64,000 bases of DNA from a virus: positions 7,728 through 71,727 of IMG/VR virus record IMGVR_UViG_3300032257_000009. One strand, 5' to 3'. The position numbers were made by a program, and so were the translations under genes. This document shows positions 28,155 through 48,855 of the stretch, in pieces (positions within the stretch are counted from its first letter, which is position 1; the number at the start of each line of letters is the position of its first letter). The notes below the pieces were generated by a model. It saw only the letters and a program-made list of their open reading frames with translations, was not told the DNA's origin and searched no databases.

Positions 28155-28832
28155 ATGTCAGGCTTTAACTTGAAAACAGAAAAAACAGCACAAGAAAAAA
28201 TACATGATAAGCAACTAGAAGATCAAAGGTCCGACATTGAATCCAATGATGGGTCTCAAATACATGAGAAGATCATAGAAGACTCTAGAGGTGAAGGGCA
28301 GGGATCTGAATTAGATATTCCTGCTGAAACTCAAATGTCAAAGGTTCATGAAACTCTGAAGCAAGCCGAGCAGCTTACTGAAGGGCAGCTTACTGAGAGA
28401 GATAGTTATCAAACTCATAGGGATGAACTTGTTGATGATCATATTATGAAACCAATGGATGCGATGGCTGAAGCTAATTTCCAAAGAAAAGAAGAGGCAT
28501 ACTCTTCTTCTGACAAAGAAGACACTAAGTTCTGGGATGACTTTGTTGGGGTTCAGCTAGAGGGAGATGCTCATAAGGTTATCGCTTCAGACCCAGCAGA
28601 GGGAAGCCAATTGAATAACCAAACAGGAAGATTCAAGGGAGTTCTTGCTTCTAGCGATAATGTCAAGACAGCTTCTATACAGGAATTAGATGAAGCTATT
28701 TTTGGTATATTTTACAAATCTGCTTCAGAAAAAAGAGAACTAACAGAAGAAGAGGGAGAAGACCTTATCGCTCTGTCTTCTGTTAAGGTCGGAATATTGT
28801 CAAGCATACAAGATATATCAGAAAGCGAATAA
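28155..28832 (+). CDS. Acidic head-associated protein (FNLK..KTAQ leader)
   Basis: SD AAGGAG; repeated (I/L)xExQ(L/M) motif; KTAQ, KTAS, KSAS. Confidence 0.65.
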   Translation: MSGFNLKTEKTAQEKIHDKQLEDQRSDIESNDGSQIHEKIIEDSRGEGQGSELDIPAETQMSKVHETLKQAEQLTEGQLTERDSYQTHRDELVDDHIMKPMDAMAEANFQRKEEAYSSSDKEDTKFWDDFVGVQLEGDAHKVIASDPAEGSQLNNQTGRFKGVLASSDNVKTASIQELDEAIFGIFYKSASEKRELTEEEGEDLIALSSVKVGILSSIQDISESE

Positions 28833-29410: not shown

Positions 29411-29413
29411 AAC

Positions 29414-30142: not shown

Positions 30143-30144
30143 TA

Positions 30145-30873
30145 TTGCATAATATTATTCTAAAAGAACTAAGAGTATTGGGCGTGTCTGTGGCAGATGG
30201 TAAATATCATATGTCGGGCAAGTCTTTTTCTCGTGAAGAACTTTTTGAAAATATAAGAAGCACTACAAAGAAGAGAAAAAGATTGCTTTGGACAATGTGG
30301 CATGAAGTAGCTATGGAACTAACTTCTGATGCGACAAACTCCTCTCCAACTGATTCTATTAGGAAATTATTTGTATCATCTCTACATGACCTATATACTC
30401 TCTCATGTTGTTTTGATGAGCTTGATAAGTGTAATGTTGTGAAAGCAATAAAAGTTTCATTGGATAAAGATATTGAGTCCTTTTCGTCTATATCTATGTC
30501 TAATGTAATAGACTACGCTCTTAGTATAGAATGGTTGAACCATCTTATAAGAAGAGATTTATATACAATTGCGTTAATAACTAAACTGAGCGAGTCGTTA
30601 CAGACTGAAGCTACTGGCGTGGCAGGTCCTTGGTCCAGAACTGATGTTCCTATGCAGGAAAGAGTTTTCAAATGGGATCAGGTTGCTGGAGAAACTGCTG
30701 GTAGAGCGATGGACCGTAGAAATCAAAGAAGATATCGTCAAGGTTTTGAAGGTTATAAAGATCTTTGGCCCAACGAAGGTACTTATTGGAGAGAGATTCG
30801 CAATGAGCCGTATAAATTTGATGACAAAGATTCAAATCCTTATCCACATAGAAATACTTTATGGAGTTCCTAA
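30145..30873 (+). CDS. Hypothetical protein
   Basis: 242 aa; TTG start. Confidence 0.6.
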   Translation: MHNIILKELRVLGVSVADGKYHMSGKSFSREELFENIRSTTKKRKRLLWTMWHEVAMELTSDATNSSPTDSIRKLFVSSLHDLYTLSCCFDELDKCNVVKAIKVSLDKDIESFSSISMSNVIDYALSIEWLNHLIRRDLYTIALITKLSESLQTEATGVAGPWSRTDVPMQERVFKWDQVAGETAGRAMDRRNQRRYRQGFEGYKDLWPNEGTYWREIRNEPYKFDDKDSNPYPHRNTLWSS

Positions 30874-31286
30874 TGAATGATAGCAATTTAGAAAAATCAG
30901 CACAAACATCTCTTTTTGATTTCTTACTAGACTCAATTCCTGAATTGCAGTTCATAAGGAATAAGAAGAATGGCCCAAGTTCTGTAGAGAGATCTCTTTA
31001 TAGCTTATGGTCAGATGCTGAAAATCAGATAAACTCCAGAAAGTTTCAAAAGCCAATAGGGATGGATGATGCAGTTGTTATGCAATTAGAATCTTCTGGC
31101 CTTGTTGAAGTGCATAATAAGAATATAAAAGTAACGAATAAGGGAGCTAACGCTATACAGAAAATCATTTTGAATGAAGAGACATCTATCTTTGAGAAGT
31201 CAGCAAGTCAAAATGGTATAGTAAAAGTTGCATCTATTCAGAATAATATATCGAGAGATACATGGTATCAGAGAATCAGAAACTAA
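30873..31286 (+). CDS. Hypothetical protein (winged-helix-like core; KSAQ/KSAS/KVAS motifs)
   Basis: LESSGLVE..IKVTNKG wHTH-like pattern. Confidence 0.55.
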   Translation: MNDSNLEKSAQTSLFDFLLDSIPELQFIRNKKNGPSSVERSLYSLWSDAENQINSRKFQKPIGMDDAVVMQLESSGLVEVHNKNIKVTNKGANAIQKIILNEETSIFEKSASQNGIVKVASIQNNISRDTWYQRIRN

Positions 31287-31693
31287 AAACCTACTTAGTA
31301 GAATATGAGAACAAAAAAGTTAGAGGCAAGAAAAAGATGCTGAAAAAACTTTATTGGTATGATCATGAATACAAAGTTATGTATACTGTTTACGGAGACC
31401 AGCTTCGTATGAGATGGCATAAGGAGTGGAAAAAATCAATACCAGACGTTGAATGGGATAAGGAAGAAAAGAAGTGGGTAATGAAAGAACCTGTATACGA
31501 GGTTTCATTCAATTTAGCAAATAATAAAAAAGAGATAGAGAATTGGGTAAAGAATGTGGCTTCTAGATTGGGAGTCGAGTTGAATAGGGAAGAAACAGAT
31601 AGCAAGGGTATAGCTATTGATGTCCCGTCTCATATTTCAAGCCAGATTGAATACTTGTTAGATAGGAATCTTTTCAGGCATAGGGAACTATAG
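31262..31693 (+). CDS. Hypothetical protein
   Basis: 143 aa; start uncertain. Confidence 0.55.
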   Translation: MVSENQKLKTYLVEYENKKVRGKKKMLKKLYWYDHEYKVMYTVYGDQLRMRWHKEWKKSIPDVEWDKEEKKWVMKEPVYEVSFNLANNKKEIENWVKNVASRLGVELNREETDSKGIAIDVPSHISSQIEYLLDRNLFRHREL

Positions 31694-31697
31694 GCAT

Positions 31698-31916: not shown

Positions 31917-32836
31917 TGACAACATATTTTCCAAAACTAAGAATAACAATAGCTGATACTCCTTCGAAGCAAGCAAGAGGTCTTATGTTTGTTAATAAGC
32001 TTCCAGAAGACAAGGGAATGTTATTTGTTTTCGCTCATCAGCGTATTCTAAGTTTTTGGGGAGAGAATACTTTGATTCCACTTGATATAGCTTTTGCTGA
32101 TATTGATGGCAATATTAGGGAGATGGGCAGTATTTCTGCTTTTTCACGGAAAGCTGTTAGAAGTTCAGTTCCTTGTGTATATGCCGTTGAAGCAAATGTT
32201 GGTTATTTTTCGGAAAACAAAATAGGTATAGGCGATAAAATTGAAATCGAAGAAGATGCAGACGGACATTATTTATCGTTTGCAAAAAAAAGAAGGAATG
32301 TATCTGCTGGAAAAGGAAGAAAAATAACAACCATTACCGCTCAGCTTGTCCCAGATATGGACAATACAGGCGATTTTGGGGTAGATGATGCACAGTCTAG
32401 ATATGATTCGTTGCCAAAGCTCAGCCCAGGAGATATTGGGTCAGCTCTTGAAGACAATCAAGAAGACTTCACGCAAGATGTCCAACAGCCTTCAGAAGAG
32501 GACAGAGGACAACTTCCTGTTGGATTGCCAATGGAAGAAGAACCAATAGAGGAAGCTCCTCAGTTTGACAACGCATTTGATGCGACTGAATGGGCTAAAC
32601 CTACAATGGAAAACGGCTTCGAAGGAAGCCCTATGAGAATAGATTATACGACGAAGAGCGGAAATAATATCATAAGAGACGTGGAACCTCATGGAATGTT
32701 TCATTCAGAGTCCACTGGAAATCAGGTTATGGTAACTTATGATAAGACGATAGGTGATATAAGGGCATTTATTGTAGGAAATATAAATTCATTCTCTTTT
32801 CTAGATGAAAAGTTTGAACCAAAGTTTAGGATATAA
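31916..32836 (+). CDS. DUF192 + WYL-like fusion protein
   Basis: N-terminal IADT...RGLMF...GMLFVF..FW..NT.IPLDIAF; C-terminal IDYTTKSG..IRDVEPH...YD...DIRAF. Confidence 0.75.
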   Translation: MTTYFPKLRITIADTPSKQARGLMFVNKLPEDKGMLFVFAHQRILSFWGENTLIPLDIAFADIDGNIREMGSISAFSRKAVRSSVPCVYAVEANVGYFSENKIGIGDKIEIEEDADGHYLSFAKKRRNVSAGKGRKITTITAQLVPDMDNTGDFGVDDAQSRYDSLPKLSPGDIGSALEDNQEDFTQDVQQPSEEDRGQLPVGLPMEEEPIEEAPQFDNAFDATEWAKPTMENGFEGSPMRIDYTTKSGNNIIRDVEPHGMFHSESTGNQVMVTYDKTIGDIRAFIVGNINSFSFLDEKFEPKFRI

Positions 32837-32837
32837 A

Positions 32838-34157
32838 ATGGAACAGTCTGTAACAGATCTTATTAAAATAGCTCAGAACCTAGATGAATCAGGTTTTGAA
32901 GATCTATCTATTCGTTTAGATTCTATCGCTGATAGCCTCTCTGATATAAAGGTTGCTCAATACGTTGGCGCTCAAGGATACTGGATTAGAAACACTAGAT
33001 GTTGGACTAATTGTTATAGGCAAAAGAGAGCTTCTTTCCCAGGCAAGGCAGCTCAAGAAGTTTGGGGAGAATGCCATTCAGAATATTTGGCCTCAATAAA
33101 TAACGACGGTAGCAAATGGGACAAGTACGCTGAAACAGAAGAAGGCATCGTAAAAATTGCTTCTCAGAAATCTATTATAGACGAAAAATTAGCAAAACTA
33201 ATAAGCGAAAAAGTAGAAAAGGGAGCGTCTACAGGACAGTCCGTTTTTGAATCCCTCAATGAATTGCAAGATTCATATGACTCAGAAGATATAAAGATAG
33301 CTACTCGACTGTTTGATTTTTCAGCAGAATTGTTTGACAAGAATCCCCAAGAAGCAATAAAGGTAGCTCATATCGCAGAAGGCTTTGTTAAGGAATCTCA
33401 ATTATGGAGAGGTCTTGGCGGGGCTTTGAAAAACATGGGGCAAGGAGCTGTTGAGAATGTTCAATACTTTAGCTACATCAAAGATATAGAATCTAGAGCT
33501 AAGAGAATGTCAGGAATGATAGAAGGCCTAAATCAATCTGTTTCTAATGCTCAGAACTACTTCAATACTACACAAGCTCAGAATCCAGCGACTATACAGA
33601 AATTTGAAGCCGCTAAGCAAGTCCTAAATCAGGTTTCTCAAGAAACAATGCAAGTTGATTCTGTTTTGAAAAATATAAACAGAAACGTAGTAAATGTCTT
33701 ACAAGGCGTTTCTCAGCAAAACACTTCTAATTTTATGGGTCAGGGACAGCAGTCAGCTCCTCAACAAGCAGCTCCTCAACAGGGTGGCGTTCCTTCTAAT
33801 ATATCTATGCCAGGGCAACCTGCTCAAGGGCAAATGTATCCTGCTCAGCAAAGCAATGTTCCTTCTAATATATCTATGCCGGGACAGCCTGCTCAAGGAC
33901 AAATGTATCCAAATACAGCTCCTAATGCGGGCAATGGCAATGTCTCAGTTCCAAACCAAAACTTTGGACCACAGACAACTTTTGGCCCAGGACAAAATAA
34001 GCCCAGACGTAGGGCGCAACTTCCTAATAATAGGGGAACTGGCTACATTTCTCCTGAATCAGGTTCAAATCGGGAAGTAAAAAAAGGTAAAATAGCGAAT
34101 AATGTCGCATATAACAGATCTAAGGCTTTTGGCACAACAATAGAGGAGTCCAAATAA
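32838..34157 (+). CDS. Head-associated protein with Q/P-rich C-terminus
   Basis: LIKIAQNLDESG, KVAQ, KIAS and KESQ motifs. Confidence 0.65.
   Translation: MEQSVTDLIKIAQNLDESGFEDLSIRLDSIADSLSDIKVAQYVGAQGYWIRNTRCWTNCYRQKRASFPGKAAQEVWGECHSEYLASINNDGSKWDKYAETEEGIVKIASQKSIIDEKLAKLISEKVEKGASTGQSVFESLNELQDSYDSEDIKIATRLFDFSAELFDKNPQEAIKVAHIAEGFVKESQLWRGLGGALKNMGQGAVENVQYFSYIKDIESRAKRMSGMIEGLNQSVSNAQNYFNTTQAQNPATIQKFEAAKQVLNQVSQETMQVDSVLKNINRNVVNVLQGVSQQNTSNFMGQGQQSAPQQAAPQQGGVPSNISMPGQPAQGQMYPAQQSNVPSNISMPGQPAQGQMYPNTAPNAGNGNVSVPNQNFGPQTTFGPGQNKPRRRAQLPNNRGTGYISPESGSNREVKKGKIANNVAYNRSKAFGTTIEESK
33789..33910 (+). repeat. Coding duplication VPSNISMPGQPAQGQMYP x2 (69-bp period)
   Basis: Near-identical 53-bp copies at 33789 and 33858. 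Confidence 0.85.
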
Positions 34158-34861
34158 TGCAATTTTTCAGTAACAAAATTCCAGTAGGAAATAAATCAAA
34201 TTTCGGTGATTTGATTCAGAAGATAGCTAACTCAAACGAGGCAACTATCAAAACAGCATCAGTAGAAGACCTAGTTGTCGCAGAGTGCGATGATGCGGAC
34301 GAAGACTGCGTAAGAACAGACAAGCATAGCGGAGAAGCATCTCCTAAAGATCAAAATGGTGAAGCGGAAGCCGATGGCGAAAGCAAAACTGTTGATCCTG
34401 ATGGCTTGAGCGCTGGTTCAGATAGCGACACAAAAGTTGCTAGCGAAGGAACAGCTACTCCAAGTGGAGCTGGCGACGGCGAAGACCTTGATGGGGTAAA
34501 TACAGGTCGTTTCCCAGACGATTTTGATCCTCAGCAAGAAGCAGAAGACGAAGGTACTGCCGACGTTGAAGCTTCTACTGAAACTCAGATCAAAGAAGCT
34601 GGAGAACTTCCACAGGCACTAAAAGATCATCAGTTCAAAGCTAAGGGCGATTCAGATGATTCTGATTCAGACTCTGACGACAAGGATTGCGATTCAGATG
34701 ATTCTGATTCCGATGATGACGGAGAATCTTGCGAAGCAAACTCAGGCTCTAAGCTTGAGAAAATAGCAAACCTTTCTCCAAAGGCAAAGAGCCGTTTGAA
34801 GGCTTATTGGAAGATGGTTTATCCTGAGGCTTACTCAGACGCTATGACTCAAGAGAAATAA
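34157..34861 (+). CDS. Highly acidic head-associated (scaffold-like) protein
   Basis: D/S-rich tract; KIAN, KTAS, KVAS, KEAG. Confidence 0.65.
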   Translation: MQFFSNKIPVGNKSNFGDLIQKIANSNEATIKTASVEDLVVAECDDADEDCVRTDKHSGEASPKDQNGEAEADGESKTVDPDGLSAGSDSDTKVASEGTATPSGAGDGEDLDGVNTGRFPDDFDPQQEAEDEGTADVEASTETQIKEAGELPQALKDHQFKAKGDSDDSDSDSDDKDCDSDDSDSDDDGESCEANSGSKLEKIANLSPKAKSRLKAYWKMVYPEAYSDAMTQEK

Positions 34862-34880: not shown

Positions 34881-35597
34881 GTGGCTATTGTACCAAGTGG
34901 AAACCGTAAATTTATGAAATTGCAGCAGGCTGTCGATCCAGTTGCTGGTCTTGGAGCAACAGATGTTGACCAAGAAGTTGTTTATAACAATGAACAACAG
35001 GACCAAGGTCAAGGCTCAGCTTTTGACTTCGAGGGACTTCAGCAGCAGATGGACGGTCAACCTCAAGAGAGTTTGAATGAAAATCCTCTCAGTGGAGATC
35101 CTATGGATCAAGCTGCTGAGGAAGAAGAGCCTTTGACTGATTTGGAAGAGAGTCTTGAAAAAGCAGTCTTGAAAAATCTTGCAGAGCTTGGAGTTCCTGA
35201 GAAAATGTTTAGAACCAAAGACGGAATTGATCCGTTTTTTCAGTGGGATGAAGACTTAGATAACGGAACTAGTTCTGGTTTCTACCTCATTCCATCTTAC
35301 ACTGAATCTAGACAGGTTAGTCGCAATGATGCAAAAGACTTAGCTCAAAGGATTGGTGCAGAATATAATCTTTCTCAGAAGATAACAAAAGAAGGCCACA
35401 ATTTCAGAGTTAAATTTCAGACCAAAGCAGAAGAACCACAAAATGCTCAATATGGTACATCATTTGATAACCTATTGAAACCAGAAAAGGCTAGCGATAT
35501 GTCTCGTGCAGCCTCTAGTAGTAATTCAATTATCACAGCAAATTCAAGCAATCAAACGCTTGATAATCTTTTCAAGCAATTCAAGGGGAAAAACTAA
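34881..35597 (+). CDS. Hypothetical acidic protein
   Basis: GTG start with SD GGAG. Confidence 0.6.
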   Translation: MAIVPSGNRKFMKLQQAVDPVAGLGATDVDQEVVYNNEQQDQGQGSAFDFEGLQQQMDGQPQESLNENPLSGDPMDQAAEEEEPLTDLEESLEKAVLKNLAELGVPEKMFRTKDGIDPFFQWDEDLDNGTSSGFYLIPSYTESRQVSRNDAKDLAQRIGAEYNLSQKITKEGHNFRVKFQTKAEEPQNAQYGTSFDNLLKPEKASDMSRAASSSNSIITANSSNQTLDNLFKQFKGKN

Positions 35598-36370
35598 TGG
35601 CAAGAATTCAAAAGACATCACAAGAGCATAATCTTAGTATTTTTGATACTCTTGATCAGAAGCATATCTCTATTGAAGATAGGCAGCCAGAAATGAAGCA
35701 ACCTAGACAGAAGGAGTCAAGCTTTGATCACTCTGTCGGGGGAGCAACTGCTGCTCCTAAACTATCTCATAACTCTATTGATGAGATAGATATGGTAAGA
35801 GGAAAGAGCAGCGTAAGATCTGCTCGCTGTGGTAGTATTAGTAATGACCTGTCGTCTAATAACGCTATGGGAGTTGCTGGTAAGAATACTATTTGTAATC
35901 CAGATTTCTTAGATAAGCTAGCAGAAGCTGTTACTAATAAAGAAAGAACATTGGCAGAAAAGGACTCGATACAGAACCAGAGATCAACACGTCAATCTGA
36001 TTATAAAAATAGCGGAGCAGTAAAACTCGGAGAAGATGATGAAGCATATCTTGCAAGAAATGCATCCTCTATAGATTCATCTTCTAGAGAAGCTAATAAC
36101 AAGGGCTGGGTTCCTAATGGTACTATAAGTATTTTTGATAATGAAGACTTTGAAAGAGTTCAGCCTACTCTAGGCGAACAGATGACTAAGAAAGAAGCAT
36201 CAAAAGATGATTCTTGGAGAAGCTATTCAAAGAACGCAACGGTTAGAGATCAAGGGCTTAGCGCATTCGATAAGATGGCAGAGTCTCATGATAGCGAATA
36301 TAGAAATCACCACCAAGACTCAACTGATAAATTGTTTGAGATATTGAAGGCTTCCAAGAAAGTAGACTAA
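35597..36370 (+). CDS. Hypothetical protein (KTSQ leader)
   Basis: 257 aa; coupled start/stop. Confidence 0.6.
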   Translation: MARIQKTSQEHNLSIFDTLDQKHISIEDRQPEMKQPRQKESSFDHSVGGATAAPKLSHNSIDEIDMVRGKSSVRSARCGSISNDLSSNNAMGVAGKNTICNPDFLDKLAEAVTNKERTLAEKDSIQNQRSTRQSDYKNSGAVKLGEDDEAYLARNASSIDSSSREANNKGWVPNGTISIFDNEDFERVQPTLGEQMTKKEASKDDSWRSYSKNATVRDQGLSAFDKMAESHDSEYRNHHQDSTDKLFEILKASKKVD

Positions 36371-36374
36371 TAAA

Positions 36375-37589
36375 ATGGCGCTACCTCCAAATGCTGTAAA
36401 TATGCTTCATGACACCGAACAATCGGTAAGCGATTTAATATCAGGAAATCTAGGTGTTATGCCAGAAGGCTTAGATCCTGATCAGCAAGAAGAATTTCGA
36501 GCAAGACAATTGGCTGCTTTGCAAAATGCAGATCAAGCTGTTTCTCTTGTTACAGATACTCAGCAAGAAGTTGGTCAAGTCATGAATGATGCCGCAGCGC
36601 AATTGCCTGCAATGGCTAGTTCTTTGTTTAGTCTTGAAAGGTTTGCTCAAGAGCAATTTATGCAAGAGCCAATGATGCAAGAAGATCCAATGATGCAGGA
36701 TCCAATGGTGCAAGAAGAAGTCCAAGAGGACACGGTAATGGGATTTACCAATCATATAGATTTATTTCATTGGCTTGAAGAGCAGTTTACTCAAGGAGTA
36801 GACTCTTCTGATATAAGAAGCCAATTGATTACAATAGTGGGGGAGTCTGAGATTTTAGATCAAAATGGTTTCCCAATTGAGCCAGCAGAAGTCGTTGCTA
36901 GCGAATTAACAAATTACACAGAAGCTCTAAATTCTGACAAACTAGAAGAAAGAGCATCTATAGCAAAAAGGATTTTTGACGTTATGCCACAAAAAGATAC
37001 CTCAGAAAATGAAGTCTCAGTTGTTGAGAAAACAGTAGCAGAGACTAATGGAATCCTTCGTCGTTTGGCTTCCGAGCTTGCAAATAATCAGACCAAAGAG
37101 AGTTCTTCTGGTTTCAATCTAAGCAAAGTTGCTCAGCATAAGACAGTAGAGAATGTAATAATGCATGGTCCTGTCGGTAATAGGATAGACCCATTTACTG
37201 GATATCTTATAAACGATTGGCATGTCTATGAAAGAAATAAGGGATGGGGTCTTCGAGCAGGAGACGCTATCGGTATTGATTACGAAGCTTTATGGAGAGG
37301 CAACGTAATGGATAAATACAGCCGTCCTTACAGAAACAAAGATGGAGATTGGATAGGCGGATATATTCAAAAGAGATTTGAAGTAGATAAGTTTATTCCA
37401 GAATCTAATAACCTACAATTGAAGCCTGGACAAAAGAGAAAGCCTTATGTGGCAGAGTTTGCTTCGCAAGAAGCTAGACTACAAGATCTTCGTTCGAAGG
37501 AAGATTCTAGAGGTCGTGTTTTTAATGATACGAGCAAGCCTTTCAATTGGAAAGAAGCTCAGAGCTGTAAAAAAAAAGTGAACGGCTAA
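36375..37589 (+). CDS. Head-associated protein ending in a slippery A9 run
   Basis: FSLERFAQ, FNLSKVAQ, FNWKEAQ; ends ...AAAAAAAAAG. Confidence 0.7.
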   Translation: MALPPNAVNMLHDTEQSVSDLISGNLGVMPEGLDPDQQEEFRARQLAALQNADQAVSLVTDTQQEVGQVMNDAAAQLPAMASSLFSLERFAQEQFMQEPMMQEDPMMQDPMVQEEVQEDTVMGFTNHIDLFHWLEEQFTQGVDSSDIRSQLITIVGESEILDQNGFPIEPAEVVASELTNYTEALNSDKLEERASIAKRIFDVMPQKDTSENEVSVVEKTVAETNGILRRLASELANNQTKESSSGFNLSKVAQHKTVENVIMHGPVGNRIDPFTGYLINDWHVYERNKGWGLRAGDAIGIDYEALWRGNVMDKYSRPYRNKDGDWIGGYIQKRFEVDKFIPESNNLQLKPGQKRKPYVAEFASQEARLQDLRSKEDSRGRVFNDTSKPFNWKEAQSCKKKVNG

Positions 37590-38326
37590 CTAAAGAGGCT
37601 CTTTTCGGCCTTAAGCTAAGAAACAATACCCCAGAAGATATGCCCGCCGAGGTAGATCCTTCTGGGGTATCTTATGATATCAATATGATTGGAAAACATA
37701 AGACCGAAGAATATTCAGGCCCTCAACCAGGCGTTGATTTTTTCGAAGGAGATATGGTAGAGATACTTCATCGAGGAAGACCTACTGGCATGAAGGGTGT
37801 TATAAGAAGGTTTGAGGGAGTAAGAAGTGGAGTTCCATATGCAAGAGTTGCAATAGAAGGGGTTCAGGGCGGAGACGTGGTTGCCTTGAATTCTATGCAA
37901 AAGATAGCTCAATTTATGGGAGAAGGACCTGGTAGGCCAGAAGCTGACCCATTTGTTATGCCTGATATCGGAGAAACGCAAGGACATGCTCAAAAGAGAA
38001 ATAAACCTGCTCTTCAAAAGACTTGTCCGATTTGCACATCTACAAATTCTGCAAACGCACTGAACTGTGTAAATTGCGGAGCAGATTTGAAGAATCCGTA
38101 TACCGTACCAAGACAGCCTACTCAAAAAATGTCTCAAGTTGGAACATATATGGTGAATCCTCCTACTAATAGAGATGTAAAAAGTCCAACTCAGGAAAGC
38201 TTTGAAAGAAGAAAGAAAAGAGTTGACAACAAAAACAAATTGTCATCAGATGAATTTGTCGATATAAAGGGAGAGGATCATGACGAGCAGGTGGCTAATT
38301 CCGCTATATCGCTTGGCATTATCTAA
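37571..38326 (+). CDS. SH3/KOW-like + Zn-ribbon protein, probably a -1 frameshift extension of the upstream gene
   Basis: Frame is open from 37571; the ATG at 37640 lacks an SD; CPIC..CVNC. Confidence 0.6.
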   Translation, partial: KKSERLTKEALFGLKLRNNTPEDMPAEVDPSGVSYDINMIGKHKTEEYSGPQPGVDFFEGDMVEILHRGRPTGMKGVIRRFEGVRSGVPYARVAIEGVQGGDVVALNSMQKIAQFMGEGPGRPEADPFVMPDIGETQGHAQKRNKPALQKTCPICTSTNSANALNCVNCGADLKNPYTVPRQPTQKMSQVGTYMVNPPTNRDVKSPTQESFERRKKRVDNKNKLSSDEFVDIKGEDHDEQVANSAISLGII

Positions 38327-38340: not shown

Positions 38341-40593
38341 ATGGCGATTAATAAGAATAACAAGCCTATAAAAATGAATTTGCCAGATAAGAAGACTAAG
38401 AGGATAGCTGCTGCTGCAAAAACAGGACAGCAACAACCTCTTGAGAAAAATTCTATTCAGGGAAAAAGTTATACAGCAAGTGGTGTTGTTGCTGTCCCCT
38501 TCTCTAAGACTGCACAGCAGCTTGGCGGAGGATCTAATACTTTATTCACACAACCAATGTTCTTTTCACCATTGCATACTCCTCAAAACTGGCAGATAGC
38601 TAGTAAGAGGCAAGAAGTCTATCAATGGTCTAGGTTTTATTACGAAAATGAACCAAAGGTTGCAGCAGGCATTGATTTCTATTCGCAATTTCCTATAAAT
38701 GGTTTCAAATTGGAATGCAAGAGCAAGAAGATACAGAAGTATTTCGAGAGACTTGTTGATAAACTAGAATTGTTAAGAATGCTTCGACTTATATCTCATG
38801 AGAGATTTCTCTTGGGGGATGTTTTTGTATTCTTAGATATTGATTCTCCAGACTCAAGAGGAGAGACTGATGTTCCATCAGGAGAGCATACTCATGCTGA
38901 TGGTACTATTAGTAGAATTATTATTTTGAATCCTGATTGGATTGAGGTTTATAATACTCCTTTGGCTGATGAACCAGAGATAGTTTTGATGCCAGATGAT
39001 GAATTGAAGAAGATAGTTCAGATGAAACAGCCTAAATCTATATACGATAGGCTCCCAGATGAAATAAAAGAACAAGTATTGGCTGCAAGGCCTATTAGAT
39101 TATCAAATAGAGTTACAAGCCATATAAAGCATGGTGGAGCGCCATACGGTACATACGGAGAATCATTACTTCGTAGACTGTTTACAGTTCTTGCTTATAA
39201 AACAAAACTAATGACGGCAAACTGGATTGTTGCGGAAAGACTTGTTCTTCCTGTTCGAGTTGTAAAAGTTGGAGATAAAGATCGTCCAGCAGGCGAAGAT
39301 GATATAGCTGATGTGCAATCACAGTTAGGTGCGGTGGCTAATGACCCTAACCTAACCATCGTTACCCACCATGCCTTTGATTACGAATGGTATGGAGCTA
39401 CAGGTAAAATTCATAACATAACAAGTGAAATAGAAACAATTGGCAAAGAGCTTCTAGACGGCATGATGCTAAACCAAGCTCTTCTCAATGGAGAGATGGC
39501 AGCATATTCCTCAGCACAGGTTGGTGTGGAAATGCTTATTCGTCGTCTTGAATCTTGGAGAAATGAATTAGCAGAATGGGTTGAAAAGAATATATTCCTT
39601 ATTGTTTCAAAAATGCAAGGCTTCTTAGATGAAGATGCGTCAAAAGAAGCAGGAGAATCGGTATATATAACTCCAACTATAAAATGGGATGACCTAAGAC
39701 TTAGAGACCCTTCCAATAGAATACAGCAGGCTATACAGCTAAACCAAAACGGCATTATATCAAATCAGACTCTTTTAGAAATGTTTGACCTTGATTACGA
39801 TCAAGAAGTTCAACGAGTTCGAGAAGAACAGGTTATGGTAGACCCAATGGGCGGTCAAATGCCTGGCGGAATGCCTGGCGGCGACCCAATGGGCGGCGGC
39901 ATGGGTGGAGGAATGCCTGGTGGAGACCCAATGGGCGGAGACCCTATGGGTGGTGGAATGGGCGGCGGAATGCCTGGAGGCGACCCGATGGGTGGCGGAA
40001 TGGGTGGCGCTCCGGGCGGAATGGGTGGCGCTCCTGGCGGCGCTCCTATGGCAGCAGGAAATGCTCCTCCTCAAAGAATCACAAAGAGAGGTAAAGCTGG
40101 CCCGAAAGAAGAAGAAGTTGAGCCTGTAGTTTCAAAACAAGTTCAACTAACAAGACCAGAAGCCAAAACATTGAGAATATTGAACGAGATAGATACTCCA
40201 TATAGTCCTTATATTCAATATAAGGTTCAAGTTCCTGGCGGTCAACAACCTTATTCTTTAGATTTTGCTTTCCCTCAAATAGGATTAAACGTAGAGGCAG
40301 ACGGAGAAAAGTGGCACACAAGTCCAGAAGATGTTCGTTCTGATAAAGAGAGAGATACCAAGCTAGCTCAGCAAGGATGGACTGTTATAAGGATTAGCGA
40401 AACATCTTTGAATGAAAATGCAGATGGGGTAAAAGATCTTTTAGGTTCAGCAATCGTAGAGGCTGCTGAATTAAGAAGGAAAATGGATAAAAAATCATCA
40501 ATTGATTCAATAAGACTTGTACAGGCTTATGTAGAGGACAGATTGACTCCGCATGCGGTTAGTATTAGTAAACCAGGAATTCAAGAGGATTGA
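38341..40593 (+). CDS. Portal protein with Gly/Met/Pro linker and C-terminal DUF559/Vsr-like endonuclease domain
   Basis: Lies between terL and the protease; portal-like features (GDVF, LNPD, YGESLLR); C-terminal LDFA..VEADG..WH...D.ERD..L...GW.VIR. Confidence 0.8.
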   Translation: MAINKNNKPIKMNLPDKKTKRIAAAAKTGQQQPLEKNSIQGKSYTASGVVAVPFSKTAQQLGGGSNTLFTQPMFFSPLHTPQNWQIASKRQEVYQWSRFYYENEPKVAAGIDFYSQFPINGFKLECKSKKIQKYFERLVDKLELLRMLRLISHERFLLGDVFVFLDIDSPDSRGETDVPSGEHTHADGTISRIIILNPDWIEVYNTPLADEPEIVLMPDDELKKIVQMKQPKSIYDRLPDEIKEQVLAARPIRLSNRVTSHIKHGGAPYGTYGESLLRRLFTVLAYKTKLMTANWIVAERLVLPVRVVKVGDKDRPAGEDDIADVQSQLGAVANDPNLTIVTHHAFDYEWYGATGKIHNITSEIETIGKELLDGMMLNQALLNGEMAAYSSAQVGVEMLIRRLESWRNELAEWVEKNIFLIVSKMQGFLDEDASKEAGESVYITPTIKWDDLRLRDPSNRIQQAIQLNQNGIISNQTLLEMFDLDYDQEVQRVREEQVMVDPMGGQMPGGMPGGDPMGGGMGGGMPGGDPMGGDPMGGGMGGGMPGGDPMGGGMGGAPGGMGGAPGGAPMAAGNAPPQRITKRGKAGPKEEEVEPVVSKQVQLTRPEAKTLRILNEIDTPYSPYIQYKVQVPGGQQPYSLDFAFPQIGLNVEADGEKWHTSPEDVRSDKERDTKLAQQGWTVIRISETSLNENADGVKDLLGSAIVEAAELRRKMDKKSSIDSIRLVQAYVEDRLTPHAVSISKPGIQED
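39841..40050 (+). repeat. Low-complexity coding repeat (GGDPMGGGMGGGMP)n
   Basis: GC-rich tandem repeats within the portal ORF. Confidence 0.85.
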
Positions 40594-42954: not shown

Positions 42955-45900
42955 ATGAGCTTTGTAAAAAGATCTTCAACAAATATGGCTATACAACCCC
43001 TTAACATTCCAGCAGGAAATGTTTGGGATCTTATAAATACAGAAACACTTGAAAAAACTGCTTCTTTAGTAAAAGACAAGCAGATAGACCTAAACGGTTT
43101 TGATATTTCTGCTGCTGTTGATAGTAATCCAGATCATCTTTTTGTAAAAGTTTTTGCAATAAAAGAAGATGAAGTAAATGATAATGGAGATGCATTCTCT
43201 AAGTCAGAACTAAAAAGAGCAGCTCATACTTTTGTAGACTGTCCTGTTTTTGTAAATCATCAAAATGATGATGTTGAAAAAGCAAGAGGCAAAGTAGTTC
43301 ATGCTTGGTACGATGAAGAAGCAAAGGGTATCTATTGCGTCAACATGGTAGACAAGACAGCATATCCTCAATTAGCAAGAGGTATTGAAGAAGGTTACAT
43401 CGTTGGAACTTCTATGGGAGCCCAGGTTGGATACTCTCTCTGTTCTATATGTCATAATAAAGCCCATACAGCAGATGAATTCTGTACTCATATCAAAAAC
43501 CAGAAGACTAGACAGTTTGCTCTAGCAAGTCATGATTGTAAATATCATGCAAGCTCTAACAAGCCAGAAGGCGATTGTCCTGTTTGCGGTTGCGAACAAG
43601 GCAAGAAGGTTGCTAATAAAACAGCAGACACTAAAGTCTTTGAATGGAACTATGATATCAACTTTATAGAAGATAGCTTTGTTGTCAATCCTGCATGTCA
43701 TGATTGCCTCGTATGCGATATCCTAAATTTACCAGCAGTTGAGAGTAAATTTGCTGAAAAGGTTGAAGAGCTAAGAAAAGTTGCTAATTCATACGAAGCG
43801 AAGATTGTTTCAGGAAGTATTACAAAAGAATCAGGACGAACAGAAGTAGATGCCCTCAATGAGGCAATGAATCTTCTAGAAAAGGTAACTCGCTCTATCA
43901 TGGCTCAAAAGCAGCAGGTTGATATGGAATATGCAAGCGACCTTATAGATGTCCTCGCTAAGGTTCAGGGAACAACAGATGAGCTTATCGAAATGGGATA
44001 TACACAGCTTCCTTCTCCTAGCGATTCTGAAGTTATGTTTGGAAATAACAGTCAAGCTTCTCCTCCTGATGGCGGTGGGGCTGAACAAATATCTGACCCA
44101 AGCCAAATGCAACAGCAAGCGCCACAGATGCAGCCTCAGGCTCCTGGCGTTCAAACAGGAAATCTTGGAAACGAAGTGGGAACTATAACAAGACCTACTT
44201 TTTCCTCCTCAAATTCAGTAATTAAGGAGGATATTTCTGAGCAATCCAATAGTTTAAGAGATAATCTAAATAAAATCTCTAATGACTTAGCAATCGCTCA
44301 GTCATTTTTAGAACAACGAAAGTTAACATTGTCAATGGTTGGCGAAGTTTACGAAGCAAGAGATAATAATGATAGGGTTACAATTTCTGAAAATTCAGAT
44401 GGTAACACCTATGTCGGTAAATGGAATGATAATAACCTAGTTGGTTGGTCTTCCAGGAATGAATTCAGCCCGGAATTGAGTCAGTTAATGACAAAAGATC
44501 CACAAGCGGCTGCGGAAACCATACTTAGTGGATATCAAAAGGAGTCAGGTTCAATGTCTAACCCAAACAAGACAGCAGCAGGTCAGGGAGTAAATCCAGA
44601 GCAAGTTGAGATAATAACTCAGAAGCAGCTCGAAAATTCTAATCTCCCTTTACACGGTCGCCAAGATAGCGTCTATAACACAATTACTGAAGGCGATGAG
44701 CAAATCGGTGGGTCTGAAAGATCAAACGATACGACAACTGATTCTAATCAGGTTCGTTCAGGTACTTATGAATTCATTACTCAATCTCAGCTTGAAGAGA
44801 TTTCCGAGGGACATATAGCTCGTTGGAGTTCTTTCCCTGAAATCATCACTGAAAAGCAATGGGATGAAATCAGTAGAGAAGTAAGCGGAAATATTGATGA
44901 ATCATATGTTGATTCAATCACTCAGTCACAACTTATTAGTATCAGAGACAAGCATCGTTGGGAAGAGCCAAATGCTGTTACTCAGGATCAGCTTGAAAAT
45001 CAAAAGGGAACAATGCCACACGCTGGCGATTCTACTCGTTTAAAGGCAGCTAACTCATTCGATCCAAAAAGCCTTGTTCGTTCAGCTACAAATGCTGTAG
45101 CGGACGCAATCGCTAATTACGGATTGTCTCCTACAGACCTAAGAAAAGCTGTAACTGCATTTACAAGCAACCCACAATCTCAAATCAAGGCATCGTATTT
45201 GACTCTTGTCAACGCAATGCCATCAAAGATTGAATCAAGAGCCGATGCTCGTGCGAGAAGCAATTACTTCTCACGAATAGCTGGCTCTTCTTCAAATTCT
45301 AAACCAGTTGATTCCCTATTGGGAGCAATGGGAGACAACCTTGGCTACGCTAAGGCTGAAGACTTCCTTGATGCGGTCAATTTTGTTGTAACTCAGAAAG
45401 ACGTTTTTGCTTCAGCAGAACGTTCAGCTAAGCAAAAGATGGCATCAAACACAGCAGAAGATGTTGTTGTTGATAAGAATTCACAATTTACTAATGCATT
45501 TGCTGAAATAAACAATGAAGGCCTATTCAAAGTCTGCGGAACTCTTTCTGTGGACCTTGGCGGCGTTGACGCAACAGACCCTCAAGCATTCTTCTCTGCT
45601 GCTCTACCTTATGTAGAAAGCACAGCAGGCGAGTCAAACCTTGTTATTGCTAATATTTCAGTTGACGAAGATTCTGGAACTTTCGAGATAATCGCAAAGA
45701 CAGAAGAAATCGCAACAGAAAAAGAAATTGAAGCATTCGCTTCTCTCCGTTCAGGAAACTTCAAGTCTGCTAGCTGGAATGTAAAGGCTGAAAAGATTGA
45801 TGAAGAAATGGGTTATGGAGATGAAGAAGATAATCAAGCAAATGACAATGAAGCTGAACGTGCAGCAGTAGCTGAAGAAGCTAAACAGCAAAGAGCAGCT

Positions 45901-48855
45901 TCTAGACAAGAAACAATGGAAAGAACAGCACAGATGCAGGGAGGTCAAATGCCAGCAGGTCTTGGCGAGGGCGGAGGCGGTGGATCATCCATGCCTACTC
46001 CTCCAGACGCAGCAGGCGAAATGGCTCCTGTAGAAAATCTTGGTGGAGCTGAAGACCCTCTAGCTGCCGAAAGCGATTTGGCAGACGGAGACTTAGATCC
46101 AGCCCCTCCAGGTACTAAATGTCCTGTTTGTGGTTCAGAAGATGTTGATGTCCTCGATGGAAGAGGTAAGTGTAACAACTGTGGTTCGGAAATGACTTAT
46201 AAAGTTGATATCGAAGTCACAAAATGGGTTGGAACGCTTGGCGAAGGCGAAGGCGATGACGAAGGAATGGAAGAAGGTTTCGAAGGCGAAGGCTTCTCAA
46301 TGGAAGACGAAGGTTTCGACCAAGACATGCCAGTTGCTGCTTATACAAGAATAACAGACAAGGCATTGAAGAAGATAGCAGAACAAGGGATAACTCTTGG
46401 ATCAATTAGTCCATACACAGGTTCATCATCCACTGTTGAACTAAGTAATGGCGAACGATTCTGCTTGAATACTGGCCGTAAATACTCATTGGCTCAATCC
46501 ATGAAGAATGACAATTGGTTCGTTCAATGGACATGGACTCCGCCAGTCGTAGATCCTTGCCCTTCATGCAAGAGACTCAAGAAAACTTTTGCATCTGCAC
46601 TAGATCAATTTGGAATCAACGATGTTGAATTCGAAAAACTATCTCTAGAAGATAGAGGCAAGGTAATTCTTTCCATGAGCAATAAGGGTTTATTGAATAG
46701 AGTCAAGACAGCTTCTAACGAAGTTACTGTACTCAAAGAATTCAAGAAGGCTCACTCATTCGGCCCAGGGGATACTTTCCCAACCGAAAACTGTAGAGAA
46801 CTTCTTGCTCGTAGATTTGGCGAAAATGCATTGGCACTAAGCGGTCCTGATGAAGGCGAGAACCTTGTGGACTCTGTTTGCAAGAGACTTGCTTCAGCTA
46901 ATATTTACAGCGATAAGATTGCACTTAAGATTGCAAGCATATGGTCACAAGACGATGCCTGTATTGAATGTCTAGAAGACTTTATCCGTAGTGGGTTCTC
47001 AGCTAAGCAAGCTTCATTAGTTTGCGACCAGTTGAAAACTAAGTATGCTATGCATGAAGAACTATTGGCAGAAGAATTGGAATCTCCATTCGGAGGCGAA
47101 GAAGAAGGTCTTGGAGTAATCGAAGATGTTATGGAATCGCCAATGGAAGAGTCATTTGATGACATGGACCCATTCGCTGAAGATTCTTCAGAAGAAGGAT
47201 TCATCTCTGTTGATATCCCACTAAGCGTTCTAGAAAACTTTGACGAAGCGATTGATAAAGCTTTAGGAGAAGACCCTTCTGATGAAATGCACCACGATGA
47301 ATCTATTCTTCCTGAAGGCGATGCTGAAATAGCTTTGCCTATGGATGCTGTAGACGCAATTGATGGGGCCGCTGATGAAGCTCTAGATATGGCTGTTGAT
47401 GTTGCTGATGCAATGGAAACTGCTATTGGTGGAGAGTCAGAAGAATCTCCTATCGAAGATGAGGGAAGCGAAGGCGGCGGAGAAGCTGTTGACGGAGAAC
47501 TTGGCTTTGGCGGAGAAGATGAGGATGAGGATGACGATGGCGACGATGATGACGACCATCCTGGTGGAGGATATCCAAAAGGAAAAGAAGACGATGACGG
47601 CTCTCAAGTAGTTGAGGGTGGCCATTCAAATCATAGCTTTGCTAATAATTCCGAAAACATTAAGAAGGAATCTTCAGCTACTATATCGAAGGATAATAGC
47701 ATCCCAACACAGGAGCAGGTAATGCGCGATTCAGATGCCTTCAAGCCAGGCAAAATAACTAAGTCTCACAAAGTAAGTCTTGACCTAAGCCGTGTTGCGG
47801 AACTATTGGGAAAAGAAGCTTCTGACTCAGCTATAAAGCAAAAGAATGTTCAAGATGATTCTGATATACAGCCTGTATCTGATGGATCAACTATGGGTCA
47901 CGAAGACAAATTAGCATTAGAAGATCCAGATGCCCCTTCAGTGGGAGCTGGCGCAACTATGGGTAATGAGTCAGATGACTTAGCTAAGACAGATGTTCCT
48001 ACCGTACCTGCGGGCGGCGGAGAAATGGGACATGAAGCAGACCAAGGCTATACAGCCGAAAAGGGTCATGAATTCACAGGCGGTCTTGATGGAGCTGGAA
48101 ACAGCAAAGCAGCAAACCGTTCAGGAACTTTGAAGACAAGCGATTATACATCTGATTTAGCAGAACGCTTAGTATCTGTTGCAACTAAAGTTGAAGAAGC
48201 TAAGCCGGTAAGCGATGACGAAGATGTCAAGCCTATCTCAAATAACAAAGACCATTCTAACACTCCAGAGGGAAGTAAGATTACTCCTTTTGAAGAGTCA
48301 GACAATGCAGAAGTAAATAGCGTACCAGAAGGCGACTCAAAAGCATTCATGGGACACGAACAAGAAAGTATCGGAGATGTACCGAAGGCTCCTAAGCACC
48401 AACCAGATATTCCAACTGGCGGCGGAAGCAATTCGGATTACGATAAGAACGAAAAGAATAATCCTGAGAAGCAGGAAAAAATTAAAGGCACGGTCATTGC
48501 TGGTAGCAATGAAGAGTCATTGACAGCTCAAAGAAATAAAGCAATTACGGTTGCGGCCAGAATGCTACAAGCAGATATTATAACGGCAGATCAAATGCCT
48601 TCTAAAATCAGCGAACTAGCTCAATATAACACTGATCAAATCAGCGATATTGAAAAGGCTATGTTTGGGGTTGTTCAAAAGGGACTCGACACCGTGGCGC
48701 AAGGCACAGAGAAGCCTTTAATCATCGCAGAGAGTAGCAACAAAAGAGACAAAAATGCAGAACTGTCAGATCGAATTCAAGGTTTGTTTAGTTTGCATCA
48801 GGACAACGAGTTAGCTGCTGACGATGATATCGCCAGTATAAGGCGGCGACGGTAA
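42955..48855 (+). CDS. Giant prohead protease/scaffold polyprotein
   Basis: N-terminal NDNGDAF..EL, VFVNH, GTSMG, CSIC, EDSFV..PA (assemblin/HK97-like protease); long acidic remainder; directly upstream of capsid genes. Confidence 0.78.
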   Translation: MSFVKRSSTNMAIQPLNIPAGNVWDLINTETLEKTASLVKDKQIDLNGFDISAAVDSNPDHLFVKVFAIKEDEVNDNGDAFSKSELKRAAHTFVDCPVFVNHQNDDVEKARGKVVHAWYDEEAKGIYCVNMVDKTAYPQLARGIEEGYIVGTSMGAQVGYSLCSICHNKAHTADEFCTHIKNQKTRQFALASHDCKYHASSNKPEGDCPVCGCEQGKKVANKTADTKVFEWNYDINFIEDSFVVNPACHDCLVCDILNLPAVESKFAEKVEELRKVANSYEAKIVSGSITKESGRTEVDALNEAMNLLEKVTRSIMAQKQQVDMEYASDLIDVLAKVQGTTDELIEMGYTQLPSPSDSEVMFGNNSQASPPDGGGAEQISDPSQMQQQAPQMQPQAPGVQTGNLGNEVGTITRPTFSSSNSVIKEDISEQSNSLRDNLNKISNDLAIAQSFLEQRKLTLSMVGEVYEARDNNDRVTISENSDGNTYVGKWNDNNLVGWSSRNEFSPELSQLMTKDPQAAAETILSGYQKESGSMSNPNKTAAGQGVNPEQVEIITQKQLENSNLPLHGRQDSVYNTITEGDEQIGGSERSNDTTTDSNQVRSGTYEFITQSQLEEISEGHIARWSSFPEIITEKQWDEISREVSGNIDESYVDSITQSQLISIRDKHRWEEPNAVTQDQLENQKGTMPHAGDSTRLKAANSFDPKSLVRSATNAVADAIANYGLSPTDLRKAVTAFTSNPQSQIKASYLTLVNAMPSKIESRADARARSNYFSRIAGSSSNSKPVDSLLGAMGDNLGYAKAEDFLDAVNFVVTQKDVFASAERSAKQKMASNTAEDVVVDKNSQFTNAFAEINNEGLFKVCGTLSVDLGGVDATDPQAFFSAALPYVESTAGESNLVIANISVDEDSGTFEIIAKTEEIATEKEIEAFASLRSGNFKSASWNVKAEKIDEEMGYGDEEDNQANDNEAERAAVAEEAKQQRAASRQETMERTAQMQGGQMPAGLGEGGGGGSSMPTPPDAAGEMAPVENLGGAEDPLAAESDLADGDLDPAPPGTKCPVCGSEDVDVLDGRGKCNNCGSEMTYKVDIEVTKWVGTLGEGEGDDEGMEEGFEGEGFSMEDEGFDQDMPVAAYTRITDKALKKIAEQGITLGSISPYTGSSSTVELSNGERFCLNTGRKYSLAQSMKNDNWFVQWTWTPPVVDPCPSCKRLKKTFASALDQFGINDVEFEKLSLEDRGKVILSMSNKGLLNRVKTASNEVTVLKEFKKAHSFGPGDTFPTENCRELLARRFGENALALSGPDEGENLVDSVCKRLASANIYSDKIALKIASIWSQDDACIECLEDFIRSGFSAKQASLVCDQLKTKYAMHEELLAEELESPFGGEEEGLGVIEDVMESPMEESFDDMDPFAEDSSEEGFISVDIPLSVLENFDEAIDKALGEDPSDEMHHDESILPEGDAEIALPMDAVDAIDGAADEALDMAVDVADAMETAIGGESEESPIEDEGSEGGGEAVDGELGFGGEDEDEDDDGDDDDDHPGGGYPKGKEDDDGSQVVEGGHSNHSFANNSENIKKESSATISKDNSIPTQEQVMRDSDAFKPGKITKSHKVSLDLSRVAELLGKEASDSAIKQKNVQDDSDIQPVSDGSTMGHEDKLALEDPDAPSVGAGATMGNESDDLAKTDVPTVPAGGGEMGHEADQGYTAEKGHEFTGGLDGAGNSKAANRSGTLKTSDYTSDLAERLVSVATKVEEAKPVSDDEDVKPISNNKDHSNTPEGSKITPFEESDNAEVNSVPEGDSKAFMGHEQESIGDVPKAPKHQPDIPTGGGSNSDYDKNEKNNPEKQEKIKGTVIAGSNEESLTAQRNKAITVAARMLQADIITADQMPSKISELAQYNTDQISDIEKAMFGVVQKGLDTVAQGTEKPLIIAESSNKRDKNAELSDRIQGLFSLHQDNELAADDDIASIRRRR

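Follow-up and report, generated by a model that had tools for sequence, protein, structure and literature searches.

The head genes of the phage represented by the IMG/VR virus record IMGVR_UViG_3300032257_000009 carry a short amino acid motif, Lys-x-Ala followed by Ser or Gln (K-x-A-[S/Q]; as a search pattern, K.A[QS]), many times over. The stretch analysed, hereafter the window, is 64 kb of a single contig of 71,727 bp, and its + strand carries nearly all of its long open reading frames (ORFs). Here, we describe how the motif is distributed in the window and in related phages, Bacillus phage G among them, and argue that it probably acts as the recognition and cleavage signal of a prohead protease encoded in the same block of genes.

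The gene order is that of a head module (Table 1). The large terminase gene and thirteen ORFs without a named family precede the portal gene at 38341, which is followed by two unnamed ORFs, a gene at 42955 for a 1966-residue protein with an N-terminal protease domain (the polyprotein), an ORF of 183 residues for a decoration-like protein and the gene for the major capsid protein at 49560. The protease-fusion gene lies between the portal and capsid genes, as do those of assemblin-fold prohead proteases. With gp27 of phage G the capsid protein shares 53.7% identity, and it matches the solved structure of gp27, PDB entry 6wkk, at E 3.5e-98; it contains no K.A[QS] and has no delta domain. PHROG and Pfam scans of the thirteen ORFs in 28155-38326 named no head protein; apart from DUF192 with a weak WYL domain in ORF 31916, they gave sub-threshold noise.

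Table 1. Positions of the genes, domains and motif sites discussed. Coordinates are those of the window unless a related locus (L number) is given; fractions are homologues that keep the residue.
Feature	Position	Strand	Details
Large terminase	26181-28145		
Thirteen ORFs without a named family	28155-38326		
225-aa ORF directly 3' of the large terminase	28155..28832	+	leader KTAQ residue 10 (28182-28193); KTAS 171; KSAS 188 (28716-28727)
141-aa ORF	30861..31286	+	N-terminal leader ends in KSAQ, residue 12 (30894-30905)
450-aa ORF	32805..34157	+	six strict motifs; KVAQ residue 49 (32949-32960), KESQ 196 (33390-33401)
234-aa acidic ORF	34157..34861	+	KTAS residue 32 (34250-34261), KIAN 202 (34760-34771)
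257-aa ORF	35597..36370	+	KTSQ residue 6, KEAS 199
404-aa ORF	36375..37589	+	KVAQ residue 251 (37125-37136), ahead of the conserved C-terminal half
228-aa ORF	37640..38326	+	KIAQ residue 88, KMSQ 163; zinc-ribbon-like CxxC pair
Portal protein with C-terminal DUF559-type endonuclease domain	38341..40593	+	PHROG 16240, E 1.3e-42
Portal KTAQ site, residue 56	38506..38517	+	border of variable N-terminus (~50 residues) and conserved core
Protease-scaffold polyprotein, 1966 aa	42955..48855	+	prohead protease, zinc-ribbon and helical or alpha/beta modules, variable linkers, C-terminal tail
KTAS, residue 34	43054..43065	+	just upstream of the protease domain; candidate N-terminal auto-release site
Protease catalytic domain (predicted), about residues 45-245	43087..43689	+	His102 43258-43260; Ser153 (GTSMG) 43411-43413
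KESG, residue 291	43825..43836	+	after protease and zinc-ribbon module; candidate C-terminal release site
KTAA, residue 539	44569..44580	+	linker; K 34/35, A 35/35; flank identity 0.22
RSAT, residue 709	45079..45090	+	K 32/35, A 33/35 (homologues mostly K)
RIAG, residue 774	45274..45285	+	K 30/35, A 32/35, S 20/35; helix end beside a loop
RTAQ, residue 990	45922..45933	+	K 28 and R 6 of 35, A 34/35, Q 35/35
KTAS, residue 1251	46705..46716	+	K 34/35, A 33/35, S 31/35
KIAS, residue 1325	46927..46938	+	K 34/35, A 34/35; in a conserved domain, within a helix modelled with confidence
Conserved C-terminal 117 residues of the polyprotein	48502..48852	+	31 homologues; invariant A, I, E, G, L and F columns; basic end
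Major capsid protein, HK97 fold	49560..50435	+	PHROG 2522, E 6.2e-68; NCBIfam capsid_Caudo_2, E 7e-54
M-x-W-Y leader ORF	8956-9249	+	
M-x-W-Y leader ORF	9940-10557	-	
M-x-W-Y leader ORF	12995-13753	-	
Three further M-x-W-Y leader ORFs	-5581 to -3337		upstream of the window
Intein-bearing protease locus	L064:14932-21762		
Intein-bearing protease locus	L031:12653-19570		
Intein-bearing protease loci	L055, L040, L028		by alignment

The motif and its recurrence in relatives

To obtain expected counts, each protein was shuffled 300 times with its own composition kept, and the 17 ORFs of 28155-48855 (6784 residues) were compared with the other 40 ORFs (12264 residues). The 17 ORFs hold 27 K.A[QS] sites against 4.7 ± 2.0 expected, and the looser K.[AS] occurs 106 times against 74.4 ± 7.1; neither count is reached in any of the 300 shuffles. 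No excess is seen in the other 40 ORFs, with 2 against 4.4 for the strict pattern and 88 against 93.2 for the loose one. The 71.7-kb contig as a whole has 31 strict sites, so that only four fall outside 28155-48855, two of them in N-terminal M-x-W-Y leaders. When all patterns of the form a.bc are scanned without bias, K.AS ranks first (17 vs 2.9, p 1.6e-8) and K.AQ fifth, and the remaining top patterns stem from a Gly/Met/Pro repeat in the portal protein. Nine patterns made of the same residues in a changed order give only 1-12 hits in the window, hence local composition is not the cause of the excess; together with the shuffles, these counts rule out a composition artefact. A short motif over-represented in the head module only is also what characterizes the T4 and phiKZ codes, but those end in Glu and this one does not: E.A[QS] has six hits in the region and six outside it, with no excess.

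A profile built from 1281 distinct sites of the window and related loci is informative at K, A and S/Q, and every other position carries at most 0.36 bit. With the other positions held fixed, Lys is enriched 3.8-fold and Arg only 1.26-fold, Ala is enriched 4.3-fold and Ser in its place only 1.08-fold, and after K.A both Gln (3.1-fold) and Ser (2.8-fold) are enriched. The residue after Ala is Gly, Ala, Thr or Asn at some conserved sites, so the motif appears to tolerate these; judging from the profile, it also seems to prefer Thr at x (3.6-fold) and Leu two residues before Lys (3.0-fold). The density of the motif is highest in the first 60 residues of proteins (5.2, 4.5 and 6.4 per 1000 residues in three N-terminal bins) and is 2.4-3.6 per 1000 between residues 60 and 400. 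Of 926 distinct ORFs in related loci, 87 have K.A[QSTA] somewhere in residues 1-16, in many cases behind a leader of the F-N-L type.

An earlier sequence-only reading of this DNA had proposed K-x-[A/S] as a proteolytic maturation code and had suggested that its enrichment in head over non-head ORFs be measured against a composition-matched background. That enrichment is borne out by the strict-pattern counts inside and outside the region. The motif itself is narrower than proposed: Lys-x-Ala stands, Ser is not enriched at the Ala position, and Ser or Gln is needed after Ala. All tetrapeptides listed are present in the ORFs named for them, with the correction that 37571, given as the start of one ORF, is no start codon and the ORF begins at 37640. 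The F-N/S/D-L prefix said to precede the sites often is found on a subset of N-terminal leaders and not beyond those.

Outside the head module, six ORFs start with an M-x-W-Y leader, three of them in the window. Two of these leaders continue directly into K-x-A-Q (MNMSWYKNEKQAQ, and MNWYKQMKLAQ after a possible internal start). The M-x-W-Y leader could be a capsid-address leader on non-head proteins.

Related loci were collected by a portal-based scan of IMG/VR, which gave 75 loci, each taken as the portal ± 10 kb. These contain 1548 K.A[QS] sites where 276 are expected from composition, against 197-519 hits for the nine reordered patterns. An excess of about threefold or more is present in 72 of the 75 loci, the exceptions being two short fragments and the most distant relative (L034, L061, L074). 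The portal relatives sit on contigs of 170-548 kb. Given that the 75 loci come from contigs of up to 548 kb, the present contig is probably a piece of a much larger, phage-G-like megaphage genome. The window also encodes an NAD-dependent DNA ligase and a ribonucleotide reductase, and a megablast search of 38341-42893 against a phage collection gave no match.

Two cultivated phages carry the same signal. In phage G, gp4-gp21 hold 13 sites against 2.9 ± 1.7 expected, a count that 0 of 300 shuffles reach, and the next 41 genes (gp22-gp64) show none of this excess (2 vs 2.0); the reversed pattern is also without excess. The head module of phage G (NC_023719) comprises gp14 (portal), gp19 (protease), gp26 (decoration protein) and gp27 (capsid protein). 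Its portal is 32% identical to that of the window, and its protease domain is 40% identical over 169 residues. The difference lies in the protease, which in phage G is a separate protein of 300 residues; BLAST against 24 phage G proteins (gp4-gp28) matched nothing in the rest of the 1966-residue protein. In the head genes of Tunturiibacter phage Tunturi_5, a cultivated acidobacterial jumbo phage whose capsid protein is 32% identical to that of the window, K.AS is the top pattern (10 vs 1.3).

The protease domain and conserved sites

In a structural model, the N-terminal domain of the 1966-residue protein has the fold of T4 gp21 and the herpesvirus assemblins. The AlphaFold2 (AF2) model covers residues 1-300 at a mean predicted local distance difference test score (pLDDT) of 69.4. 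The top three Foldseek rows are chains of the T4 gp21 entry 5jbl (E 4e-3 to 7e-3, probability 0.96-1.0), and herpesvirus proteases make up most of the remaining listed rows. With VIA-align, the match to 5jbl_B reaches Z 9.0 (rmsd 3.2, 140 of 164 residues), the next unrelated row 6.2 and the herpesvirus proteases Z 4-5. In family terms we take T4 gp21 to be S77, HK97 gp4 to be S78 and the herpesvirus enzymes to be S21. Residues 56-194 match PHROG 18299, 'head maturation protease' (E 6.5e-12), and PHROG 2774 (E 1.2e-32), in a collection that carries no curated cut-offs. Curated family thresholds are not reached, the best Pfam hit being Peptidase_S78_2 with 13.1 bits against a cut-off of 24 (E 0.099) and the NCBIfam score being only 16.5 bits against 525.

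His102 (in NHQND) and Ser153 (in GTSMG) are invariant in 29 of 29 aligned homologues, as are the acidic residues D79, E85, E108 and D133; proteases of this fold have a third catalytic residue, which is His, Asp or Glu. We regard His102 and Ser153 as the presumed catalytic pair on grounds of conservation and motif type rather than residue-level superposition. A scan of 24 window ORFs, all within 26181-50948, found no other protease gene.

Motif sites bracket this domain. In the fused form they stand at residues 34 and 291 and enclose the protease together with a zinc-ribbon module. The stand-alone protease of phage G, gp19, is bracketed likewise (KIAG9 and KTAA43 on one side, KVAS248 and KIAS274 on the other), its KTAA standing at the position equivalent to the window's KTAS at residue 34, and the stand-alone protease of Tunturi_5, gp331, has KTAA33 and KVAS265 on either side. 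Sites on both sides of the domain, in fused and stand-alone forms alike, are what self-release would require.

Conservation of the polyprotein sites was read from homologues of at least 1700 residues (42 rows including the window, 36 after dereplication), that is, from 35 non-redundant full-length homologues with a mean identity of 0.36. At residue 34, Lys is kept in 34 of 35, Ala in all 35 and Ser in 28, with x variable and a flank identity of 0.33; Ala36 is invariant in 29 of 29 aligned N-termini. At residue 291, where the window has Ser in the third position, homologues have Lys in 34 of 35, Ala in 29 or Gly in 5, and an invariant Gly after it (35/35), with a flank identity of 0.27. The site at residue 990 lies at a sharp change of conservation (identity 0.11 upstream and 0.40 downstream). 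Across the eight conserved polyprotein sites identity averages 0.12 higher downstream than upstream, which 0.9% of 2000 random site sets reach.

A second AF2 model, of residues 281-1400 (mean pLDDT 65.1), was used to look at the sites at 291, 539, 709, 774, 828, 937, 990, 1251, 1325 and 1351, with the looser, non-conserved matches at 440, 529, 623, 697, 841, 980 and 1311 left out. Sites 291, 539, 937 and 1251 are placed in low-confidence linkers, and 828 and 990 within five residues of one. More precisely, residue 291 lies in a low-pLDDT stretch right before a helix, 539 within a low-pLDDT segment (model residues 252-328) and 1251 in a short one between two helices (model residues 971-975), and the site at 990 ends a long helix two residues ahead of a low-pLDDT linker. 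Foldseek returned no match at E <= 0.001 for this model. The last 117 residues of the polyprotein are, from gene position only, a candidate capsid-protein-binding scaffold end; co-folding them with the capsid protein gave a median score of 0.11 against a mark of 0.32, which counts neither way.

In the portal protein, the motif marks a junction. We took portal hits that cover over 300 residues and begin no later than query residue 60, and counted identical N-termini once; the junction column then reads [K/R]-x-[A/S]-[Q/S] in 41 of 41 distinct N-termini, gp14 of phage G included, and the conserved portal core starts directly after it.

For the small ORFs, we counted homologues whose BLAST match covers at least half of the query, dereplicated at 90% identity. 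The best-kept site is that of ORF 36375 at residue 251 (K 48/48, A 48/48, Q 45/48), where x is Thr in 24, Glu in 9 and Gln in 7. ORF 32805 keeps the motif in 19 of 20 homologues at residue 49 and 18 of 20 at residue 196, and ORF 34157 in 18 of 19 at both of its sites, where the flanks are only 0.19 (residue 32) and 0.37 (residue 202) identical. The leader site of ORF 30861 has K in 38, A or S in 33 and Q in 36 of 41. ORF 35597 is less consistent, with the motif present in 5 of 30 homologues at residue 6 and in 5 of 30 at residue 199. Few non-redundant homologues are available for ORF 28155 (three only; site 188 kept in 3/3, sites 10 and 171 in 0/3) and ORF 37640 (six only; 0/6 at residue 88, 3/6 at residue 163). 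The best-kept sites thus follow a linear-motif pattern, with K and A near-invariant, x variable and flanks only 0.2-0.45 identical. ORF 36375 has no family match in PHROG or Pfam and no usable ESM Atlas match; for this ORF and ORF 41037, ESM Atlas look-ups gave no usable hit by features and a TM score of at most 0.27 by structure.

Several further features of these genes are recorded here. The ORF at 31916-32836 has no strict motif though it is surrounded by motif-bearing ORFs; it encodes a DUF192 domain (E 1.2e-23) and, after this, a stretch with a weak WYL-like match (E 4.4e-4). The region has a strong excess of C..C pairs (10 vs 0.5), and zinc-ribbon-like CxxC...CxxC modules are found in the polyprotein at residues of about 163-250, 1055-1077 and 1201-1205 and in ORF 37640. 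Portal residues 637-699 match Pfam DUF559 (E 3.6e-7), and a Gly/Met/Pro repeat of ~70 residues joins the portal to this DUF559 / MTES_1575-type endonuclease, a fusion also present in L033. The portal gene of one relative holds an intein (L033:9989-14347), and in some relatives a LAGLIDADG intein sits directly after the GTSMG, the presumed catalytic motif, of the head protease. The intein matches are LAGLIDADG_3 at E 3e-7 (L064) and 7e-15 (L031), and Intein_splicing at E 4e-4 in L064 (20.7 bits, under the Pfam cut-off of 35.8) and 8e-9 in L031. In L069 the polyprotein appears as several ORFs that start just before motif sites; these overlap by 45-64 nt and were read as frameshifts or assembly errors. 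Finally, gp97 of the mycobacteriophage Myrna (1211 residues, L077:14905-18540) is noted as 'tape measure' in its record, yet contains a domain homologous to the window's head protease. It is encoded two genes upstream of the major head protein, in the order gp97-gp98-gp99 as in the window, and looks like a protease-scaffold fusion of the window type.

Interpretation and alternatives

We consider it likely that the phage's own prohead protease recognizes and cuts its substrates at K-x-A-[S/Q], this protease being the assemblin-fold Ser/His domain at the N-terminus of the polyprotein. If the three-residue motifs (P3-x-P1) of T4 and phiKZ and the herpesvirus A↓S/T sites are a guide, the scissile bond would most likely follow Ala (K-x-A↓S/Q). 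In the sequence of events that we propose, the polyprotein would enter the prohead with the capsid protein by way of its conserved C-terminal end, the protease would free itself at the flanking sites, residues 34 and 291, and the rest would be cut at accessible linker sites at about residues 539, 937, 990 and 1251. A variable stretch of ~58 residues would be taken off the portal N-terminus, and short N-terminal leaders and internal linkers would be trimmed on several small proteins encoded between terminase and portal, which would therefore probably be internal head or ejection proteins.

Several results weigh against this interpretation. Many of the 27 window sites are not kept at the aligned position (for example 0/20 at residue 139 of ORF 32805, 4/41 at residue 122 of ORF 30861 and 5/30 or fewer at the sites of ORF 35597), and part of the count may be lineage-specific or due to chance. 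The strict motif occurs in only 9 of the 17 ORFs of the region; with 8 of 17 free of it and the thirteen ORFs upstream of the portal having no assigned head function, the 'about 20 kb of head proteins' of the sequence-only reading was overstated. The capsid and decoration proteins carry no motif at all. The abstract of the phage G structure paper reportedly speaks of a protease processing the capsid protein; if so, the site would be of another kind or only a few residues would be removed, and PDB chain 6wkk holds 280 of the 282 residues of the capsid protein. The head genes of Myrna, which has a homologous protease, give a weak signal (R.AA, 11 vs 3.6). Insertions and deletions are not significantly asymmetric around the polyprotein sites (p about 0.13).

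The structural context of the sites is mixed as well. The model places three of the ten sites checked (709, 1325 and 1351) within confident helices; structure may account for their conservation, probably so at 1325, and cutting at 709 is doubtful. Moreover, four of ten sites strictly inside low-pLDDT segments is no better than expected, such segments making up 33% of the model. The suggestion that the sites sit at domain borders therefore holds in part, for the six of ten that lie in or within five residues of low-confidence linkers. Every computational test run agrees with the broader proposal of a head-maturation protease that does not cut after Glu and processes head proteins and the polyprotein, the cutting itself being a prediction from sequence and model for this phage and its relatives.

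The motif might instead be an uncut docking or address tag, a capsid-targeting or scaffold- or portal-binding peptide that recruits proteins into the prohead. The peak of motif density in the first 60 residues, the 87 ORFs with a motif in their first 16 residues and the M-x-W-Y leaders outside the head module, two of which run into K-x-A-Q, would all suit such a tag, and the computational tests used here do not separate binding from cutting. However, a pure tag need not flank the protease domain on both sides in fused and stand-alone forms, recur about eight times in one polyprotein or mark the exact start of the conserved portal core, which makes this explanation quite unlikely. In T4 the address peptide ends in a cleavage site, so that tag and cut site are not mutually exclusive.

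That the excess reflects no signalling function, being a by-product of helical or disordered sequence rich in Lys, Ala, Ser and Gln or of diverged repeats or paralogues, is disfavoured and scarcely credible. The region is indeed rich in low-complexity and coiled segments and three conserved sites are in helices, but neither the per-protein shuffles nor the reordered patterns approach the observed count, and x varies while K and A are fixed. The low information of the flanks in the 1281 sites means that these are not copies of one repeat, and the flat profile rules out paralogous repeats as the source. The choice of enzyme is a separate matter, given that in staphylococcal phage 80alpha a host enzyme does the cutting and that the link from the motif to the N-terminal domain of the polyprotein is an assumption. 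Phage G itself encodes ClpP and ClpX, and PMC12484599 reports both in its particles, which counts for cleavage by a host enzyme or by a second phage protease. Against this stand the absence of a further protease among the 24 window ORFs scanned, the sites bracketing the assemblin-fold domain, which are the best conserved of all, and the way the motif tracks the phage lineage across Bacillus-group and acidobacterium hosts, which fits a phage-borne specificity; we judge another protease very improbable.

Cleavage by the phage's own protease can also be extended, tentatively. Megaphages of the phage G clade might have a general cargo-loading system in which K-x-A↓S/Q serves as address and cut site at once, which we see as possible, if somewhat unlikely. 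Any protein that bears a short leader (F-N-L or M-x-W-Y) with the motif at its end, or is inserted as a module in the polyprotein, could then be carried into the prohead, released by the protease and delivered to the host together with the DNA, and the preference for Ala↓Ser would be ancient and common to the herpesvirus assemblins.

Known maturation systems and significance

The closest counterparts are T4 gp21, phiKZ gp175 and SPN3US gp245. These share the fold, with T4 gp21 the best structural match, and they share a three-residue motif of the P3-x-P1 type that occurs in many copies in head proteins only, sites that release the protease, and N-terminal propeptides on the portal and internal head proteins, which are here predicted. 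The T4 motif is L/I-x-E. In T4, the internal proteins IPI-III and Alt carry a capsid targeting sequence that gp21 removes, and the short N-terminal leaders on unrelated proteins described here likewise end in the protease motif; the leader is of another kind (F-N-L-x-K-x-A-Q or M-x-W-Y...K-x-A-Q), and both packaging and removal are putative. For SPN3US gp245, PMC10052503 describes cutting after A-x-E with Ser preferred at P1', self-freeing, and mostly N-terminal propeptides. The differences are that the motif here is Lys-x-Ala and theirs x-x-Glu, that the protease here is fused to ~1700 further residues and theirs stands alone, that the capsid protein here has neither motif nor delta domain, and that cleavage has been measured there whereas here the motif is known from sequence.

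The herpesvirus assemblin-scaffold system (UL26/UL26.5; MEROPS family S21, as we take it) resembles the polyprotein in other respects. The fold is related, the protease is N-terminal to a scaffold-type protein (here a putative one), and a release site, here a candidate, follows just after the protease domain. Herpesvirus sites rely on a hydrophobic residue further upstream, whereas here Lys at P3 dominates and the Leu preference falls at P5. The motif here also occurs dozens of times in many proteins, theirs at two or three sites in one. Both have a small residue at P1, the bond here being the predicted one: the R and M sites of pseudorabies assemblin are given as YLQA-T and VQA-S in PMC4498786.

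No description of a prohead-protease motif of the Lys-x-Ala kind turned up in full-text searches, which did not cover the phage G structure paper of 2020. To our knowledge, among the proteases that mature large phage heads only those of T4, phiKZ and SPN3US, which cut after Glu, have been worked out. What we describe would be prohead-protease maturation with a different, assemblin-like specificity, and it is directly testable given that phage G and Tunturi_5 are cultivated and both carry the motif.

If the reading of the motif as a cleavage signal is right, it would explain how many head components arise from one 1966-residue protease-scaffold gene, and would provide a sequence-level parallel to the A↓S sites of herpesviruses. 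On the same condition, the head genes of hundreds of uncultured megaphage genomes, for which no function is known, could be annotated with predicted mature N-termini and with internal head or ejection proteins, and a second well-defined specificity would sit in the clade of the largest cultivated phage. Should the cargo-loading extension also be true, the phage G clade would link the maturation chemistry of phages to that of herpesviruses.

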